A stretch of DNA of 64,000 nt, taken from positions 1,248,001 to 1,312,000 of the forward strand of contig OY769902.1 in the NCBI GenBank assembly GCA_963669175.1. The letters are read 5' to 3'. The position numbers and the translations under genes are program-made. The notes under the pieces are model-generated. The model did not search any database and was not told the origin of the DNA. It was given only the letters and a program-made list of their open reading frames with translations. Position 1 is the stretch's first letter. Every line of letters begins with the position of its first letter. Shown here piece by piece: positions 7,046-27,283 of the stretch. The DNA comes from a bacterium. GTDB lineage: Bacteria > Electryoneota > Electryoneia > Electryoneales > Electryoneaceae.

Positions 7046-8773
7046 ATGAGTCCCAGAGGCCGCAGTCGGCGTGGTCCGCAAAAGAACAAACTTCGTATCC
7101 CGAAGGCAAAATATATCTTTATTACCGGCGGTGTGGTTTCCTCGCTGGGAAAGGGTATCATGGCCGCATCGCTGGCCTTGATGCTGAAGAGCCGTGGATA
7201 CAAGGTCACCACTCTTAAATCCGATCCCTACCTGAACGTCGATCCGGGCACGATGAATCCGTTCCAGCATGGCGAAGTGTACGTCACCGATGACGGCGCT
7301 GAAACCGACCTGGACCTGGGGCATTACGAAAGGTTCACCGGGATTTCCATGACGCGGCTGAACAATGTCACGTCCGGCCAGATTTACGAATCGGTGATCC
7401 AGAAGGAACGTGATGGTGAGTACCTGGGCGGTACCGTGCAGGTGATTCCGCACGTGACCGATGAGATCATCTCCAATATCGCGTTGCTGGCCAAGCAGAC
7501 ACCGAAGCCGGAAATTGTGATTGTGGAAGTCGGGGGTACGGTTGGCGACTATGAAAGCCTGCCGTTCTTCGAAGCTTTCCGCCAGTTCAAGCAGAAGGTG
7601 GGACCTCGTGATGTGCTGTTCATTCACCTGACCCTGTTGCCTTATGTGGCTGCGGCTGGCGAACTGAAGACCAAGCCGACGCAGCACAGTGTCAACAAGT
7701 TGCGTGAAATCGGCTTGCAGCCGGATATCATCGGCCTGCGTACACAGCACCCGGTATCCGAAGACATCAAGCAGAAGATCGCCCTGTTCTGTAGTGTGGA
7801 TGTGAAAGACGTCGTCGCGGTGCAGGACGCCAAGTCGATCTATGAAGTGCCGTTGATGCTGGAAGAAGAAGGGCTGGCGCGTTCGGTGATGAGCAAGCTG
7901 AGCCTGAAAGCACGCAAGCCGAACATGACTGAATGGGCGAAGCTGGTTGACCGGATCAGGAAGCCGTCCAAGACAATCAAGGTGGCGTTGTGCGGGAAGT
8001 ACGTCGAATTGCAGGACGCCTACAAATCCATCACGGAAGCTTTCATCCATGCCGGCGCCAAATGTGACGCTCGTGTGGAAGTTAAACGCATCGAAGCGGA
8101 AGATGTGGAAAAGTTCGGTCCGGAAGAGGTTTTCAAGGACGTTCATGGCATCCTCGTTCCTGGCGGATTCGGCACACGCGGCACCGAGGGCAAGATTATC
8201 GCAGCGAAGTATGCTCGTGAAAACAAGATTCCCTATTTCGGTATCTGCCTGGGTATGCAGATCGCGGTGATCGAGTTCGCGCGGAACGTGGCAGACCTGA
8301 AGAACGCCAACTCCAGCGAATTCCGTCGCACACGTTACCCGGTAATCGACCTGATGCCGGGCCAGCGTCGCCTGCGTCAAAAGGGCGGCACCATGCGTCT
8401 GGGCGCGTGGGCCTGCCACCTGAAACGTGGCACCAAGGCGTTTGAAGCCTACGGACAGGAGCTGATCCACGAACGCCACCGTCACCGTTATGAGTTCAAC
8501 AACAAGTACGAGCAGATCCTGACCGAAAACGGCATGATCATCTCCGGCGTCAATCCCGATGAGGGTTTGGTTGAGATGATTGAGCTGAAGGATCATCCCT
8601 GGTTCGTTGCCTGCCAGTTCCACCCGGAATTGAAGAGCCGGTTAACCGATGTGCATCCGTTGTTCTACCGTTTCATTGACGCCTCGATCAAACATCAGGA
8701 TGGCAATGGTGGCACGGTAGAAGCAGTGGAGCCCACGGAACCGGAAGAGGGGCAGGCGACCGAGGGTGCGTGA
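7046..8773 (+). CDS. pyrG: CTP synthase
   Basis: [50 protein letters not shown]. Confidence 0.99.
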
Positions 8774-9944
8774 ACTAAAGCTCAGAAAAGATGAAGAAAA
8801 GCGCATCCGCAGGGGATACCTCTGGGTGTTTGCCAACCAGGTCGCGGATGACCTGAAAGAGTATGAACCCGGTGAGGATGTATCGGTTTTTGCTTCCAAC
8901 GGCGCGCCGCTGGGATCGGGAACGGTCAGTCCGCATTCGTTGATCGCGGTACGGATGCATGACCGTAACATCAAGCAGCCCCTGGACAAGGCATTCCTGA
9001 AACGGAAGATCAAGACCGCGTGGGCTCGACGCCTGCGTTGGGGTTATGAGGATGCCTGCCGGGTTGTACACGGTGAAGCGGATGGCCTGTCCGGGCTGAT
9101 TATCGACCGTCTCGGACCTGAAATTGTAGCTGTTCAGCATGGCAGCGCGGGAATGGACCGGCAGAGCGACGTCATCCAGGGTATCGTCGAGCAGCTTTTC
9201 TCGCCGAAGACGATAATTGTCGCCGATGACACCCAGGCTCGGGCACGTGAGCAGTTACCGCTCAAGCGTGACATTATCGGTGAAGGCAAAGGCGAGCTGC
9301 GCTGGTTCGAGCTGGATGAGATGCTGTGGCCGGTGGATCTTGATCCGGAAGGTGGACAGAAAACCGGATCGTACCTGGACCAGGCGCCCTCACGGCGGAC
9401 GGTTGCGATCATGGCGGAAGGCCGTAGTGTTCTGGACGCTTTCAGTTATACCGGTGGTTTCGGGTTGATGGCGGCTGCGTTTGGTGCGACAGATGTAACC
9501 CTGGTGGACCGGAGCGAACGTGCGCTGGAGATCGCCAAAGAGGCGTTTAAGGTGAATGAGCTGCCGGAGCCACGTATACTGAAGCTGGACCTGCTGAAGC
9601 AGAGCGTACCGGCGAAGGAACTGGGCGGCCCGTTTGACTTGGTGATCAGCGATCCGCCGCCCCTGGTGAAGAGCCGGGCGAAAAAGGCGGAAGGATTTAC
9701 CAAGACTGCGCAAGCATTTCAGGATGCGCTGAGCTGGACCAAGCCGGAAGGGTTGGCGGCCTTGTTTTCCTGCAGTCATTTGGCGACCTTGGCCGATGTG
9801 CAGGAACTGGTGCGCAGAGCAGCACGCAAAGCGAGAACACGAGTCACCCAGTTGCAGGCGTTGCAGGCCGGGCCGGATCATCCTGTGGCGATGGCGCACC
9901 CGGAAACCGAGTACCTGCACGGCTCACTGGTGGAGGTAGGGTAA
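8766..9944 (+). CDS. RlmI-like class I SAM-dependent rRNA methyltransferase
   Basis: PUA-like N-terminus, [28 protein letters not shown]...PETEYL. Confidence 0.88.
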
Positions 9945-9945
9945 G

Positions 9946-10332
9946 ATGGAAGCAAACGCAGCATTTGCAAATTACGGCGATATTATCCGTGTCATTGACA
10001 TGTTGTTTCAGGGCCGTCATGGTTGTACCGCCAGCGAACGTGAAGTCGGCGCCACCTTTACCGTGAGCACGGAACTGTTCCTCGACACACGTAAAGCCGC
10101 AGAAACTGACCAGCTTGAGTATACGATTGATGTTGCTGCTGTCCATGAAGTGGTGAAGGCAGTAGTGACCGGTACGACCTGCAACCTGGTTGAAACAGTT
10201 GCAGAGAATATTGCGAAAGACCTGCTGACTGCGTTCCCCATTAACGCAGTACGAGTACGGATGCATAAGGACCGCTCCCCAATGCCGGGACCAACCAACG
10301 GATACGAAGTTGAGTTGTTCCGGAAGGCCTGA
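9946..10332 (+). CDS. folB: Dihydroneopterin aldolase
   Basis: FQGRHGC...ER, NLVETVAE, VRVRMHK; adjacent to folK. Confidence 0.88.
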   Translation: MEANAAFANYGDIIRVIDMLFQGRHGCTASEREVGATFTVSTELFLDTRKAAETDQLEYTIDVAAVHEVVKAVVTGTTCNLVETVAENIAKDLLTAFPINAVRVRMHKDRSPMPGPTNGYEVELFRKA

Positions 10333-10825
10333 GTCCGTACTGGTGTACCTTTGCCTCGGCGGCAACCTGGGAGATGTCCCAGGTGCGTTCGCCGAGGCAA
10401 ACTTACTCCTGGCCGGTTCCGAAGGGTGTGAATGCACCCGAAAAAGCCGGTTGTATCGTTCTGCGCCCTGGGGCGATCCGGATCAGCCGGATTTTTATAA
10501 CCAGGTGGTCGAACTTACATGGTGTGGCGCGTTTGAGGAACTGACCCGGTTGATGGATGAGATCGAGCAGAAGCTGGGACGTACCCGCGACAAGACACGC
10601 CGTTGGGGACCACGAACCCTGGATATCGACATCCTGCTCTATGGCGATACGGCTGTTGATCAAGATGGCTTCGTTGTGCCGCATCGGGAATTAAGAAACC
10701 GTCTCTTCGCATTGATCCCGCTGGCAGAACTGGCGCCGGATATCGTGCCGCCCGGATGGAACTTGTCGGTGAAGGATGCGATTCAGGCAACGACAGATAC
10801 GGGCTCGGTGAACGTGGTTGAGTGA
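10310..10825 (+). CDS. folK: 2-amino-4-hydroxy-6-hydroxymethyldihydropteridine diphosphokinase
   Basis: LGGNLG, QPDFYN, RWGPRTLDIDIL, PH; start codon uncertain. Confidence 0.95.
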   Translation: MSCSGRPESVLVYLCLGGNLGDVPGAFAEANLLLAGSEGCECTRKSRLYRSAPWGDPDQPDFYNQVVELTWCGAFEELTRLMDEIEQKLGRTRDKTRRWGPRTLDIDILLYGDTAVDQDGFVVPHRELRNRLFALIPLAELAPDIVPPGWNLSVKDAIQATTDTGSVNVVE

Positions 10826-10989
10826 GCGCGTGATAATGAGTGGCGTGGGCGAAAAATGGGACTTTCATGATAAGTAGAGTCAAGGGGAAGACGGAGTTTT
10901 CCCGAGTCCTTTGATTCATCTCTGAACCAGGACGATGCCTAACCTCTTCCTCAACGCGTTTTTCCTGACCTTTGCTCGCTCTCGCGTGG

Positions 10990-11150
10990 GCCGCCAACAG
11001 ACCTTACGGCCAGACATTCATGGTCTGTCTCGGGGCCATATGGCCCGTCACAGAAGATGAAGTTAGGGATCACCCGACCAGCCTCTAAACAGTTTCAAGG
11101 ATGCCCGAAGCATAGTCCCCTGTTTCGTGAGGCCTGGCGGGCAGGTCCGG
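10990..11150 (-). ncRNA. Predicted bridge/seek RNA of the IS1111-type element (boundaries approximate)
   Basis: Internal loop carrying AGGGGAC and GAAACTGT, matching the two halves of the target; CATGAATGT matches the donor junction at 8/9. Confidence 0.7.
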
Positions 11151-11178
11151 TTTACAATACGCGTTGTGGCATAGAATG

Positions 11179-12225
11179 TTAGTTTACAAGTTCTGTTGTC
11201 GTGTCGGCTTGAACAAACGGCGTTCCCCGTCGATCAACCGCCATCAGATACGCTACCAGCTTGCGTGCTACCGCCAAGGTTGCCCGGTTGGGATTGCTGC
11301 GTGCCAGTTCACGGTCATGCACAATCTGCAGCTCTGGATGCCACTGTGGCGCCAGCTTCGCCGCTTCGATCAGTTTCGTCTGCAAATGTTTGTTTCGTTT
11401 CTTGGACAACGGTCCCCGTTTCGTTTTTCCCGCTGATTCCTGCTGCGCACTACACAAACCGCAGTAACTGATTGCCTTGGAAATACTGGCAAACCGTTCC
11501 ACTTCACCCACTTCCAACGCCCATGTCAGCGCGGTCATCACACCAATGCCACGGATCGTCATCAACAACTTCACCCGATCTGCCAACAGCGAATGCGTAG
11601 CCAGCGCCTTAACCAGTTGAAGTTGCAGCGCCTCAAACAGCTCAAGGCCGGCACGATTCATTCGCAACATCTCAACCACAGTGGTCGGAATCTCATCCAG
11701 CGTATCAAGTTCAATGAGCAATTCATGGAAGTAGCGTTTGCCATGTAGACGCCTTTTCGAATACTCAGCGCCCACTTCCATCAGTAATCCGGCCGTCTTG
11801 TTCTTCAGGCTCACGGCATGCCGGACGATTTTGTTGCGAAATCGCAGCACACGGCGTAGCTCACGGATATCTGATGGTGCCATGTAACATTCCGGCAACA
11901 GGTCGATACGGAGCAGATCTGCGATACGTTTGGCGTCATCCTTGTCATTCTTTTTCTTCGCCGCCGTAATCGCCTTCAGCATCGCCGGGTGTGCCACCTT
12001 CAGTGCCGATGCATGCGGCTTCAGAAAATCATAAATCCAGCCTGTAAACAACGTCGCTTCCATCGCCGCCGCCCAGGGAGTCGGTAACTTCGCAACCCAG
12101 TTTGAAAGAGCAGGACGGGTGGATGCAACCATGCCCTGGTCAACTATCTTACCTGCCGACGTTTGAATACAATACGCAATCTTCTTCTTGTGTACGTCCA
12201 GACCGATGTAGTATACTGCCTGCAT
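11179..12225 (-). CDS. IS110-family transposase/recombinase (DEDD RuvC-like domain plus C-terminal Tnp20 domain)
   Basis: IGLDVHK, MEAT, KNDKDDA, GIG, YCGL...SAGK, AVARKL. Confidence 0.97.
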   Translation of the reverse strand: MQAVYYIGLDVHKKKIAYCIQTSAGKIVDQGMVASTRPALSNWVAKLPTPWAAAMEATLFTGWIYDFLKPHASALKVAHPAMLKAITAAKKKNDKDDAKRIADLLRIDLLPECYMAPSDIRELRRVLRFRNKIVRHAVSLKNKTAGLLMEVGAEYSKRRLHGKRYFHELLIELDTLDEIPTTVVEMLRMNRAGLELFEALQLQLVKALATHSLLADRVKLLMTIRGIGVMTALTWALEVGEVERFASISKAISYCGLCSAQQESAGKTKRGPLSKKRNKHLQTKLIEAAKLAPQWHPELQIVHDRELARSNPNRATLAVARKLVAYLMAVDRRGTPFVQADTTTELVN

Positions 12226-12337
12226 GCCAACCTCCTCGTGTAAGTACTACGGGTAACCTCGTGTTACGCCTTTAACACAAGTTAGCCCGACATGTGTGCT
12301 GCGTCGAGGTTGGCTGCTTCTACTTATGCATTATAAC

Positions 12338-12829
12338 AGTTTCCTTTTCGTGGTTCAGAATGCAGGACATTATATCCAATGATTTTGAAAAGGAAACTGT
12401 ACCGAATTTTTCGCCTGTAATCGTTGCATGTTCCTGCGCGGAAAAATGCTGGGACAGTTACCTTTTTCGCAACAAGTTTCTCAAGCTTATCAAGTCAATA
12501 GCACTGTCATACAGTATCAAGACTGTCAACCAACCTGCCAGCGAAAACGAGTAACAGTCCCCATTTTTCAATTATAGCTTCCTGTTCCCGGTGACAAAGT
12601 TTGCGTGGCCCGATGCACACGTGAGACTGGTTGAGTTGTTGGTGTTGCTTGGATACTGTGATACTGCAATGACCTGTAACACAAGTACGAGTGGATCGGG
12701 ACTGAGCAGAAAACACCGGCAAAAGGGTACAGTCACCTTTTCGATTCATTGAATCACGGGATAGCTAACTAAAGCGCGACGAAAAGGAAACAGTCCCCTT
12801 TTGCTGCCAGATTCCTGTTCCCGGTGACA
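12338..12829. repeat. Remainder of the IS-interrupted family A1 element, plus a family H element and a family A pair
   Basis: Colinear with the 19673-20009 element; 18-bp direct repeat TTCCTGTTCCCGGTGACA at 12579-12596 and 12812-12829. Confidence 0.8.
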
Positions 12830-12908
12830 TGCTGAAAAGGGAGACCCGGTGATGCGAAGCTCTCCTTCATGCCGTATTTTACGCTGAACGACAACGATGG
12901 GTTGAAGC

Positions 12909-13556
12909 TTGAGCGATCATAACTACATCGTCATCGAGGGGGTAATTGGTGCGGGCAAAACCAGTTTGGCGACCCTCATGGCAGAGCGGCTGGATGCCAA
13001 GCTGGTTCTGGAACAGCATGAAGAGAATCCTTTCCTCGTCGATTTCTATCGTGACCCGGAACATTTCGCGTTTCAGACGGAACTGTTCTTCCTGCTGAGC
13101 CGGTATCGTCAGCAGACAGAAGAGTTCACGCAGACCGATCTGTTCCAGCAGTACACGATTTCCGATTACCATTTCGCGAAAAACCGTATCTTCGCCAACA
13201 TTACCCTGGACGACCGTGAGCTGTCCCTGTACGACCATGTGGCGACGTTGCTGGAACGTGATGTCCGTACCCCGGACCTGGTGGTTTACCTGCAGTCCAG
13301 CCCGGAACGCCTGATGCGGAATATCCGGATACGGAATCGCACTTACGAACGTGAGATCAGTGGCGAGTATATCAAATCCCTCGTGGAAGCCTATAACTAC
13401 TTCTTCTTCCATTACGAAGCCTCTTCACTGCTGGTGGTCAATACCAACGAAGTGGATTTTGTCCGCAATCCGCAGCATCTGGAAGATTTGCATCAACGTA
13501 TCCTGAACACCCCGGATGGGACATCGTTCTACAATCCTTCCGGGAGGGGAAAATGA
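12909..13556 (+). CDS. Deoxynucleoside kinase (dgk/dck family)
   Basis: IEGVIGAGKTSL P-loop, NPFLVDFY, PDLVVYL, R.RTYE. Confidence 0.93.
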   Translation: MSDHNYIVIEGVIGAGKTSLATLMAERLDAKLVLEQHEENPFLVDFYRDPEHFAFQTELFFLLSRYRQQTEEFTQTDLFQQYTISDYHFAKNRIFANITLDDRELSLYDHVATLLERDVRTPDLVVYLQSSPERLMRNIRIRNRTYEREISGEYIKSLVEAYNYFFFHYEASSLLVVNTNEVDFVRNPQHLEDLHQRILNTPDGTSFYNPSGRGK

Positions 13557-26461: not shown

Positions 26462-26970
26462 GGCCGGTCCTCGTAATTCGCCGGTGTGGAAATCCTGGAT
26501 CAGGTTTTTCATGAAAGTATCCAGCCTGTTTGGTTTACACAAGATGCATCAGCCGTTAACGCTACAGTAAAACACGCTCCTTCACTATACTTTTCTACCG
26601 AGTTGTATAGATATTGACAACAGATTTGTATGGTTGTCGTTCCTTTACGACTGAAGGCTGATTCGCTATCTCATTCAGGATCCTTTATGTGCCACCCCTT
26701 CGGGGTTTATAGGGGGTGGTGTCAAGGTTCCCGGGGCTTACGCCCCGCGCTATTCATGTTTCGCTCCTTCGGAGCATGTGGATTCATCTTAGTCGATTCA
26801 TCGGAATCTGTGTATCTACCGTTATCATTATTACCAATAATTCTCGGAAGCGGATAAGCCTCTTCAAAGTTATTGGGACTTGCCTGGATCCCCGCCTGCG
26901 CGAGGATGAAAACCGAAGGATTGATTCTCTTATTTTTATTGCTGTTCTCGATTTTATTCCGACATAATAA

Positions 26971-27177
26971 AGATTGCCGGGAAAAGGGGACGGGATCCTT
27001 TTCCTCGCGCGCATATGAAACACTCTCGCCGAACTTGTGGAAAAGGAAACTGTCCCCTTTTCCGTGTACGTCCTGCCTGCTCTCAAGAAAAAGGGTACAG
27101 CCACCTTTCCCGGTCCATGCTCACAGCGGGAAGGCTTTGCCCCAAGGAAAGGAAACTGTCCCCTTTTTCCATATCCT
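26971..27177. repeat. Family A2 composite element
   Basis: Paralogue of 4046-4253; contains GAAACTGTCCCCT twice. Confidence 0.85.
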
Positions 27178-27283
27178 TATCCTTTATTCCAACCATATGG
27201 TTGACCTTTCACTGATCTGGCACATGACCACATGACGGAATAATAATGGGAATCGCTATATTTAGAATAGACCACCGCCGGGC

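Follow-up and report, generated by a model that had tools for sequence, protein, structure and literature searches.

A stretch of 64,000 nucleotides from a bacterium of the family Electryoneaceae (contig OY769902.1; this whole stretch is called the window below) carries, on its minus strand, an insertion sequence (IS) with a long non-coding 3′ end. The question raised by this locus is whether the non-coding end encodes an RNA that guides the element to its target, and whether the sites recognised by such an RNA can be read directly from its letters. An original prediction, made from the window sequence, held that guides in the 3′ end spell both a host repeat and the donor junction of the IS, and that the element is a candidate new programmable recombinase. 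As described below, the element is very probably an intact IS1111-type member of the IS110 family, whose right end encodes a predicted bridge/seek RNA of ~70–170 nt.

Ends and architecture of the insertion sequence

The whole IS occupies window positions 12335–10861 (minus strand; 1,475 bp, one core counted). Its ends were fixed by comparing two full copies present in the same genome. In both copies, the left flank reads ...GAAACTGT and is followed by TATAATGC...; at the right boundary, both read ...CATGAAAGT, followed by CCCAT in the window copy or by CCCCT in the second copy. The termini of the window copy are ...CATGAAA+GT and GT+TATAATGC.... Since GT is present at both junctions, it can be taken as their common core, and the element as one whose insertion leaves no duplication. 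The left core (12337–12336) is part of the left target half, GAAACTGT (12336–12343, minus strand), which flanks the IS and is identical to the left flank of the second copy. The right core (10862–10861) is followed by the right target half CCCAT (10856–10862 with the core, minus strand), which has one mismatch to the guide described below.

The left end, delimited by the copy boundaries, is 110 nt long (12226–12335, minus strand). It opens with TATAAT, a perfect −10 hexamer (12335–12330), and contains the left subterminal inverted repeat ATAAGTAGA (12327–12319). The transposase gene follows (11179–12225, minus strand), and the remaining 318 nt (10861–11178, minus strand, including the right core GT) form the right non-coding end, the predicted guide-RNA region. 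The right subterminal inverted repeat TCTACTTAT (10878–10870) is overlapped by a −35-like TTGACT (10883–10878), so that the two occupy 10870–10883 of the minus strand. The subterminal repeats are 9 bp long and perfect.

This arrangement fits the IS1111 architecture as it is defined in PMC11187229 and PMC11208160. The subterminal inverted repeats are accompanied by short asymmetric terminal extensions, and a long non-coding region (318 nt) lies 3′ of the gene for a 348-aa transposase; the description in PMC11187229 gives a long downstream non-coding region and transposases of 330–350 aa.

A promoter and terminator scan of positions 10800–12400 retrieved a single promoter-like site and a single terminator-like site; each lies on the plus strand and is within shuffle expectation. 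The same scan found no minus-strand promoter-like site beside the predicted RNA, and nothing that would account for its transcription. No relevant match was obtained when positions 10500–13000 were scanned against Rfam 15 (E ≤ 1); matches to mir-5681 and psbNH were at chance level, both fell within the repeat cluster, and they were discarded as irrelevant. The IS is located just downstream of three plus-strand open reading frames (392, 128 and 171 aa; window 8766–10825); they are convergent with it, and none of them is interrupted.

The transposase

The 348-aa product, recognised from its open reading frame, Pfam and NCBIfam matches and motifs, is an IS110-family RNA-guided DEDD transposase. 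Both its N-terminal DEDD/RuvC-like domain (PF01548, 73.2 bits, cut-off 29, 2.6e-20) and its C-terminal Transposase_20 domain (PF02371, 61.9 bits, cut-off 21.3, 7.5e-17) exceed the curated cut-offs, and the NCBIfam model NF033542, “IS110 family RNA-guided transposase”, covers residues 6–336 of 348 with 176.6 bits (cut-off 140). Motifs GLDVH, MEAT, NDKDDA and QESAG at residues 8, 55, 93 and 262 align with their ISCro4 counterparts, and we infer from this alignment that D10, E56, D94, D97 and S264 are the catalytic positions. The catalytic positions of IS621 come from mutagenesis, as reported in PMC11208158. The C-terminal motif, GLCSAQQESAG, departs from the published IS1111 motif GL-P----S(t)G in that S replaces P and SA replaces SG/TG; the account in PMC11187229 also mentions an occasional TA.

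In pairwise comparisons, the protein scored 57 bits with 23% identity to IS4321 versus 30 bits to IS621/ISCro4. As judged from these scores, the transposase is closer to the IS1111 reference IS4321 than to IS621/ISCro4, yet remote from both. A tblastn search of plasmids returned 623 records. The best match, on a Desulfocapsa plasmid, was 62% identical; all of the remaining records fell within the band below 60% identity, and in a spread sample of 24 other rows, identity was at most 37.5%, or at most 31% where the match spanned the greater part of the query. The plasmid matches listed for these 623 records included no characterised element.

[quoted passage not shown]

The minimum free energy fold of the 321-nt right end contains an outer stem, an internal loop and a capping hairpin, which together make up a putative target-binding module at 11073–11141 (minus strand). 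The outer stem has 13 bp, with its 5′ arm CCCGCCAGGCCTC at 11141–11129 paired to the 3′ arm GAGGCTGGTCGGG at 11085–11073, the latter with an extra bulged T; the capping hairpin, ATGCTTCGGGCAT, is at 11113–11101. The stem, loop and hairpin of the original prediction are all recovered by this fold, while its 3′ arm, given as GAGGC-TGG-CGGG, is absent as written on account of the bulged T. The strings on which that prediction relied are all present on the minus strand at the positions it gave: AGGGGAC at 11115–11121, GAAACTGT at 11089–11096, TAAC at 11062–11065 and CATGAATGT at 11014–11022.

The first two of these strings lie on the two sides of the internal loop. AGGGGAC, on the 5′ side, is the complement of top-strand GTCCCCT and would serve as the right target guide. 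On the 3′ side, GAAACTGT is of the same sense as the left target half with its core and would, as the left target guide, pair with the bottom strand. Overlapping at GT, the two segments spell the 13-mer GAAACTGTCCCCT. The layout thus has the features of a bridge/seek RNA: an internal loop enclosed by a stem, with two sides that match opposite target strands and overlap at the core. The occupied site of the window copy, GAAACTGT|IS|CCCAT, agrees with the guide-derived word at 12 of 13 positions, and both this match and the GT core, as originally proposed, can be seen at the junctions of the window copy.

We then asked how often a match of this kind arises by chance. When the 318-nt right end was shuffled with preservation of dinucleotides, only 6 of 20,000 shuffles did at least as well as the observed 8 nt on the left plus 7 nt on the right, matched in the same order within 80 nt. 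The fold of the whole right end is only slightly more stable than that of shuffled sequences (z-score −1.79).

A second copy occupies the predicted target in a host repeat

A search of the genome with positions 10800–12400 revealed the second full copy of the IS, which is 100% identical to the window copy over 1,502 nt. Its flanks, GAAACTGT|...|CCCCT, match the guide-derived word at 13 of 13 positions. The exact 13-mer GAAACTGTCCCCT occurs 82 times in the 5.45-Mb genome (0.16 expected), and versions with one mismatch occur 116 times (6.3 expected). As a natural example, the locus is a clean one, legible in the sequence alone: the RNA predicts a 13-mer, the second copy occupies it, and 82 such sites exist.

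The 13-mer is the commonest form of a host repeat, in which it forms the centre of a palindromic hairpin, GGAAAAGG..ACTGT..CCTTTTCC. This hairpin is, in turn, a module of a composite interspersed repeat of ~325 bp, for which 115 BLAST segments were found genome-wide, many of them 83–98% identical. The composite repeat consists of two hairpins ~106 bp apart in the same orientation, and a full copy is located at window ~26937–27260. The main hairpin variants differ in the centre base (ACTGT vs ACAGT) and in the arms; a degenerate hairpin pattern gives 175 matches per strand. At least five degenerate hairpins of the same repeat family are clustered upstream of the IS (window 12340–12850, minus strand).

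The genome search also retrieved one short match to the flanking repeat and three truncated fragments, all of them remnants of the left end only: L003 (1628745–1629068), L004 (2995185–2995421) and L005 (4172435–4172595). L004 comprises the first 237 nt of the IS, is broken within the transposase gene at ...CCCGTCC, and is fused to the right half of the repeat (CCCTTTTCC...). This structure is equivalent to losing the sequence from an internal GTCC to the GTCC of the right junction, possibly the outcome of aberrant excision. L003 (324 nt) ends at no obvious motif, and L005 is an older variant, 91% identical, which has an in-frame stop and whose left flank differs.

Structure and guides covary among homologues

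Folding and covariance analysis across homologues had been put forward with the original prediction as its own check. Relatives of the element were collected from species-representative genomes (126 in total), and the best 80 of the 126, with 59–67% amino acid identity, were kept; they come mostly from Desulfobacterota genomes and MAGs. L085 and L086, two N-terminally partial matches among the 80 loci, were left out, and 77 of 79 downstream regions had at least 250 nt and were aligned. The IS ends of homologues were located by conserved end motifs, which replaced a longest-inverted-repeat heuristic that proved noisy and often picked host palindromes.

The 3′ non-coding regions of the homologues align with that of the window. 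Conservation is seen in the outer stem, in the stretch that follows the left guide and over most of the second loop; what varies are the two guide positions and the hairpin stems. A structure alignment (A1) was built from the window and those 32 of 62 unique homologue RNAs that have a short donor-loop hairpin (≤182 nt), by which a large insertion was avoided. RNAalifold applied to A1 yields the same architecture as the fold of the single sequence. Compensatory changes were seen in 17 of 33 pairs of A1 versus 7.7 ± 1.7 in column shuffles (none of 500 was as high) and 1–4 with slid partners. In the outer stem, such changes affect 9 of 13 pairs, and in the inner hairpin, 3 of 4.

The comparison of guides with flanks was confined to loci whose 14-nt flanks were complete and whose ends could be recognised (of 80 rows, 65 for the left side and 56 for the right). 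For the left guide, identity to the cognate flank was 7.47 of 10 positions versus 5.27 for non-cognate flanks (64 unique pairs), and for the right guide, 7.56 versus 6.09 (55 unique pairs); none of 10,000 permutations was as high in either case, though these tests ignore relatedness among loci and overstate significance to an unknown degree. Single loci that stand out are L012, L074 and L084, which share 10 of 10 right bases, and L037, L047 and L077, which share 9 left bases.

A close relative with changed guides provides a further comparison. Contigs of the seawater metagenome run X3 contain an element ~95% identical to that of the window, with 21 differences over 626 nt, 3 of which fall within the 15 guide bases: the left guide has substitutions at 11093 and 11095, and the G run of the right guide lacks one base, at 11117. 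The right flank of this relative, which is the part of the target that the comparison covers, begins with GTCCCTG in the unaligned end of the contig and matches the shortened guide at 7 of 7 positions but the window guide at only 5. In the contigs compared, neither a join across the IS (that is, no empty site) nor a circle junction was found. Taken together, the exact 13-mer at the second copy, the covariation with flanks among homologues and the changed guides of the close relative uphold the proposed target guides, and the view that both target-loop segments would behave as guides is supported by these sequence comparisons.

About 15 homologues from different genomes (e.g., L007, L014, L033, L038 and L063) have a near-identical left flank, ATTAAGTATACTGT, or close variants of it, with right flanks such as GTCCCCGGAAT. 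The shared left flank points to a class of repeat that many Desulfobacterota genomes have in common; at several of these loci, the left guide matches only partly.

Guides and flanks alike keep T-GT-CCC nearly unchanged across the clade: T is at position −1 in 61 of 62 unique left flanks, and the three positions that follow the core each have C in 46–53 of 55 unique right flanks. At four loci, the right junction is GA (L008, L013, L084) or GC (L065), where the left junction is GT. At each of them, the right guide spells GA (GC in L065) and the left guide GT, and the junctions keep both. The near invariance of T-GT-CCC and this disagreement between the guides on the second core base hint at a partly hard-wired target and at tolerance of a core mismatch. 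One may tentatively go further and regard the clade as a distinct IS1111-like lineage with a largely hard-wired target, in which natural reprogramming is confined to ~5 positions on the left and 3 on the right, though we consider this doubtful. If it were true, the hard-wired T-GT-CCC would point to a PAM-like constraint imposed by the protein or active site, or to a crossover that spans more than 2 nt; the latter is hinted at by the GA/GC right junctions of the four loci and by variation at −1 between copies of one IS (L059 vs L060). The clade would then provide a bridge system that is compact and natural, uses a GT core and brings its own consensus junction promoter.

The putative donor-binding loop

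Downstream of the target-binding module, the right end folds into a second internal loop enclosed by a stem, a putative donor-binding module (11014–11065, minus strand) that consists of a 5′ segment with TAAC (11065–11062), an inner hairpin (11053–11025) and the 3′ segment CATGAATGT (11022–11014). The hairpin of this module also shows compensatory changes in A1. According to the original prediction, the two segments match the donor junction, and they fared differently in the comparison.

In 54 of 64 loci, the 3′ segment is identical, at 8 of 8 nt, to the last 8 nt of the right IS end including the core. A variant, ATAGATGT, is present in both guide and right end at 5 loci, and the G-to-A change at −4 in the window's own element is likewise found in guide and right end alike. 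We accept CATGAATGT, on this covariation, as the probable left donor guide. One position differs in the window: at −1, adjacent to the core, the guide has U and the right end has A, which leaves a match of 8 of 9. L060 and L077 also show T-to-A at −1, and A is retained in the X3 relative. A search for donor guides as exact runs against the window's own right end returned no pair because of the −1 mismatch; the donor reading is therefore one drawn from family comparison.

The match of TAAC, 4 of 4 in the window, was not accompanied by covariation. In the 5′ donor segment, only AAC opposite GTT (3 nt) is constant in the clade, and no covariation was found at positions 4–5 of the right donor guide among the clade loci; at position 4, only 2 of the 7 loci with a left-end A have a guide that predicts it, and only 2 of the 12 guides that predict A belong to a left end with A. 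The 4-nt match is a weak one that, taken alone, does not go beyond chance. For comparison, the right donor pairing of IS621 is described as only ~4 bp as well (PMC11208160), and the same source reports IS1111 elements with donor complementarity in their loops. Next to TAAC, the 5′ donor segment (window 11054–11061) changes from ACTCAAT to ACTTAAT in L063 and L077, whose left ends change from TTGAATG to TTAAATG. This joint change may reflect a second short pairing with the left end, the cases being few.

The handshake-guide scheme of IS621, when applied to these RNAs, gave no consistent pattern. The U after the right target guide could pair with the donor A at −1 of the window's element, and not with the T of most homologues.

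Alternative explanations

That the target-like words might lack a guide function altogether, being pieces of the host repeat taken up into the 3′ untranslated region or chance words in a terminator-like structure, is suggested by the great abundance of the repeat, fragments of which could be picked up, and by a right end that folds only slightly better than shuffles. Yet the two halves are split by a conserved hairpin, one of them is reverse-complemented, and each is on one side of the internal loop; ~60 homologues from other hosts repeat the layout with other words, which agree with the flanks of the homologue concerned; and the shuffles seldom did as well. This reading is disfavoured, and we regard it as extremely improbable. 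A different possibility is that the RNA reads the target alone, as in the seekRNA model, while the ends are recognised through target flanks and subterminal repeats, with the second loop having a structural or protein-binding role. The absence of covariation in the right donor guide beyond its three constant bases would agree with this. So would the invariance of most of the second loop in the clade, since its match to equally invariant ends could then reflect shared ancestry, and the finding, given in PMC11187229, that circle formation by ISEc11 was blocked when target bases flanking the donor were replaced. However, the G-to-A variant of the 3′ segment is accompanied by the same change of the right end at the 5 loci, as is the −4 change in the window, and donor complementarity in IS1111 loops is on record (PMC11208160). 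Donor recognition without the RNA appears quite unlikely.

It may also be that the guide RNA was functional in the lineage and that the copy in the window is dormant or weakened and now transposes rarely. The left donor guide CATGAATGT mismatches CATGAAAGT at −1, and the 5′ donor segment could pair with its own donor beyond the core, UAACUU being complementary to six top-strand bases across the junction; for IS621, cognate handshake pairing is reported to inhibit recombination by blocking strand exchange (PMC11208158). The low number of full copies, 2 for 82 perfect sites, with three truncated left-end remnants beside them, points in the same direction. Against this, the identity of the two copies over 1,502 nt and the intact reading frame suggest a recent move. 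The ~95% identical X3 relative shows no difference in the right end, from which it follows that A at −1 is a stable feature of the lineage, and the change is shared by L060 and L077; the handshake rules of IS621 may also not hold in a distant clade. We consider dormancy rather unlikely, and prefer to view the element as an intact IS1111-type IS whose RNA would read both target and donor.

A proposed mechanism

The sequence comparisons show the anatomy of the element, its exact prediction of the target, the covariation of guides with flanks and of paired stem positions, and the presence of two identical copies; that the RNA is made, bound by the protein and able to guide recombination is inferred. 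If it works like the systems characterised so far, the transposase–RNA complex would recombine both junctions and release the element as a circle. The first loop would then read a copy of the host repeat through the 13-mer GAAACTGTCCCCT, with both guides including the GT core, and the second loop would read the circle junction: its 3′ side, CATGAATGT, would pair with the right IS end and the core, and its 5′ side with only 3–4 nt, that is, the core and the first bases of the left end. The DEDD/Ser transposase would recombine the circle junction with a new copy of the repeat at GT, without target duplication.

Circularisation would also leave 17 nt between TTGACT and TATAAT and give a putative promoter that faces the transposase gene and would be active in the circle. 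The hexamer at the −35 position of the integrated copy is CTGAAC. Junction promoters are described as known in the IS110 family.

Comparison with known systems

The comparison with described elements bears on the last part of the original prediction, that of a candidate new programmable recombinase, in which the novelty is overstated: right-end bridge RNAs, non-CT cores and the targeting of repeats have all been described. According to PMC11208160, 93% of the IS1111 elements in ISfinder have a bridge RNA predicted in their right end. Natural non-CT cores exist, e.g., AG in ISPpu9, and the targeting of REP/BIME repeats is presented as a known habit of the IS110 family (both PMC12288879); GT cores are reported to have been used with engineered IS621/IS622.

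Among IS1111 elements with a described seekRNA (ISEc11, ISPa11, ISKpn4 and ISPst6; Siddiquee et al. 2024, PMC11187229), the order of the target segments is the same as here, with the complement of the top strand 5′ of the complement of the bottom strand. As described there, the subterminal repeats usually have 11–13 bp, versus the shorter, perfect 9 bp of the present element, and the terminal extensions have 7+3 nt versus ~6+4 nt here. The C-terminal motif departs from the one published for that group. IS4321/IS5075 of plasmid R751, which belong to the IS1111 family, can be aligned over the full catalytic and C-terminal domains (residues 1–294), though identity to IS4321 is only 23% (68/297, BLASTP E 1e-13); those elements target Tn21-type terminal repeats.

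With IS621 and IS622 (ISCro4), as described by Durrant et al. 2024 (PMC11208160) and Hiraizumi et al. 2024 (PMC11208158), the element shares a two-loop RNA with a short right donor pairing and DEDD plus Ser active-site motifs that align. It differs from the published accounts of these systems in that the predicted RNA is in the right end rather than the left, the guides of each loop come in the opposite order, GT replaces CT as the core, and the putative junction promoter would drive the transposase gene first and not the RNA. The similarity of the protein to those of IS621/ISCro4 is very low and partial (E 2–4e-6). ISPpu9, ISPpu10 and ISPa11 (PMC12288879; Tobes and Pareja 2006, cited in PMC11208160) are reported to reside, like the present element, at a fixed position and orientation in clustered palindromic host repeats; as here, their core is other than CT (AG in ISPpu9, PMC12288879), and partial modules occur dispersed through the genome. 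In contrast to the repeats given for those elements, the host repeat here has a different sequence and is part of the ~325-bp composite repeat.

The element adds a further case to a mechanism that was described in 2024, and the locus leaves this known mechanism unchanged; it represents a new, well-populated clade, not a new kind of system. What it adds is this apparently uncharacterised clade of GT-core IS1111-type elements, many members of which are naturally reprogrammed in the left guide. The clade could therefore serve as a comparative data set for the guide rules of IS1111-type systems, which are less studied than IS621.
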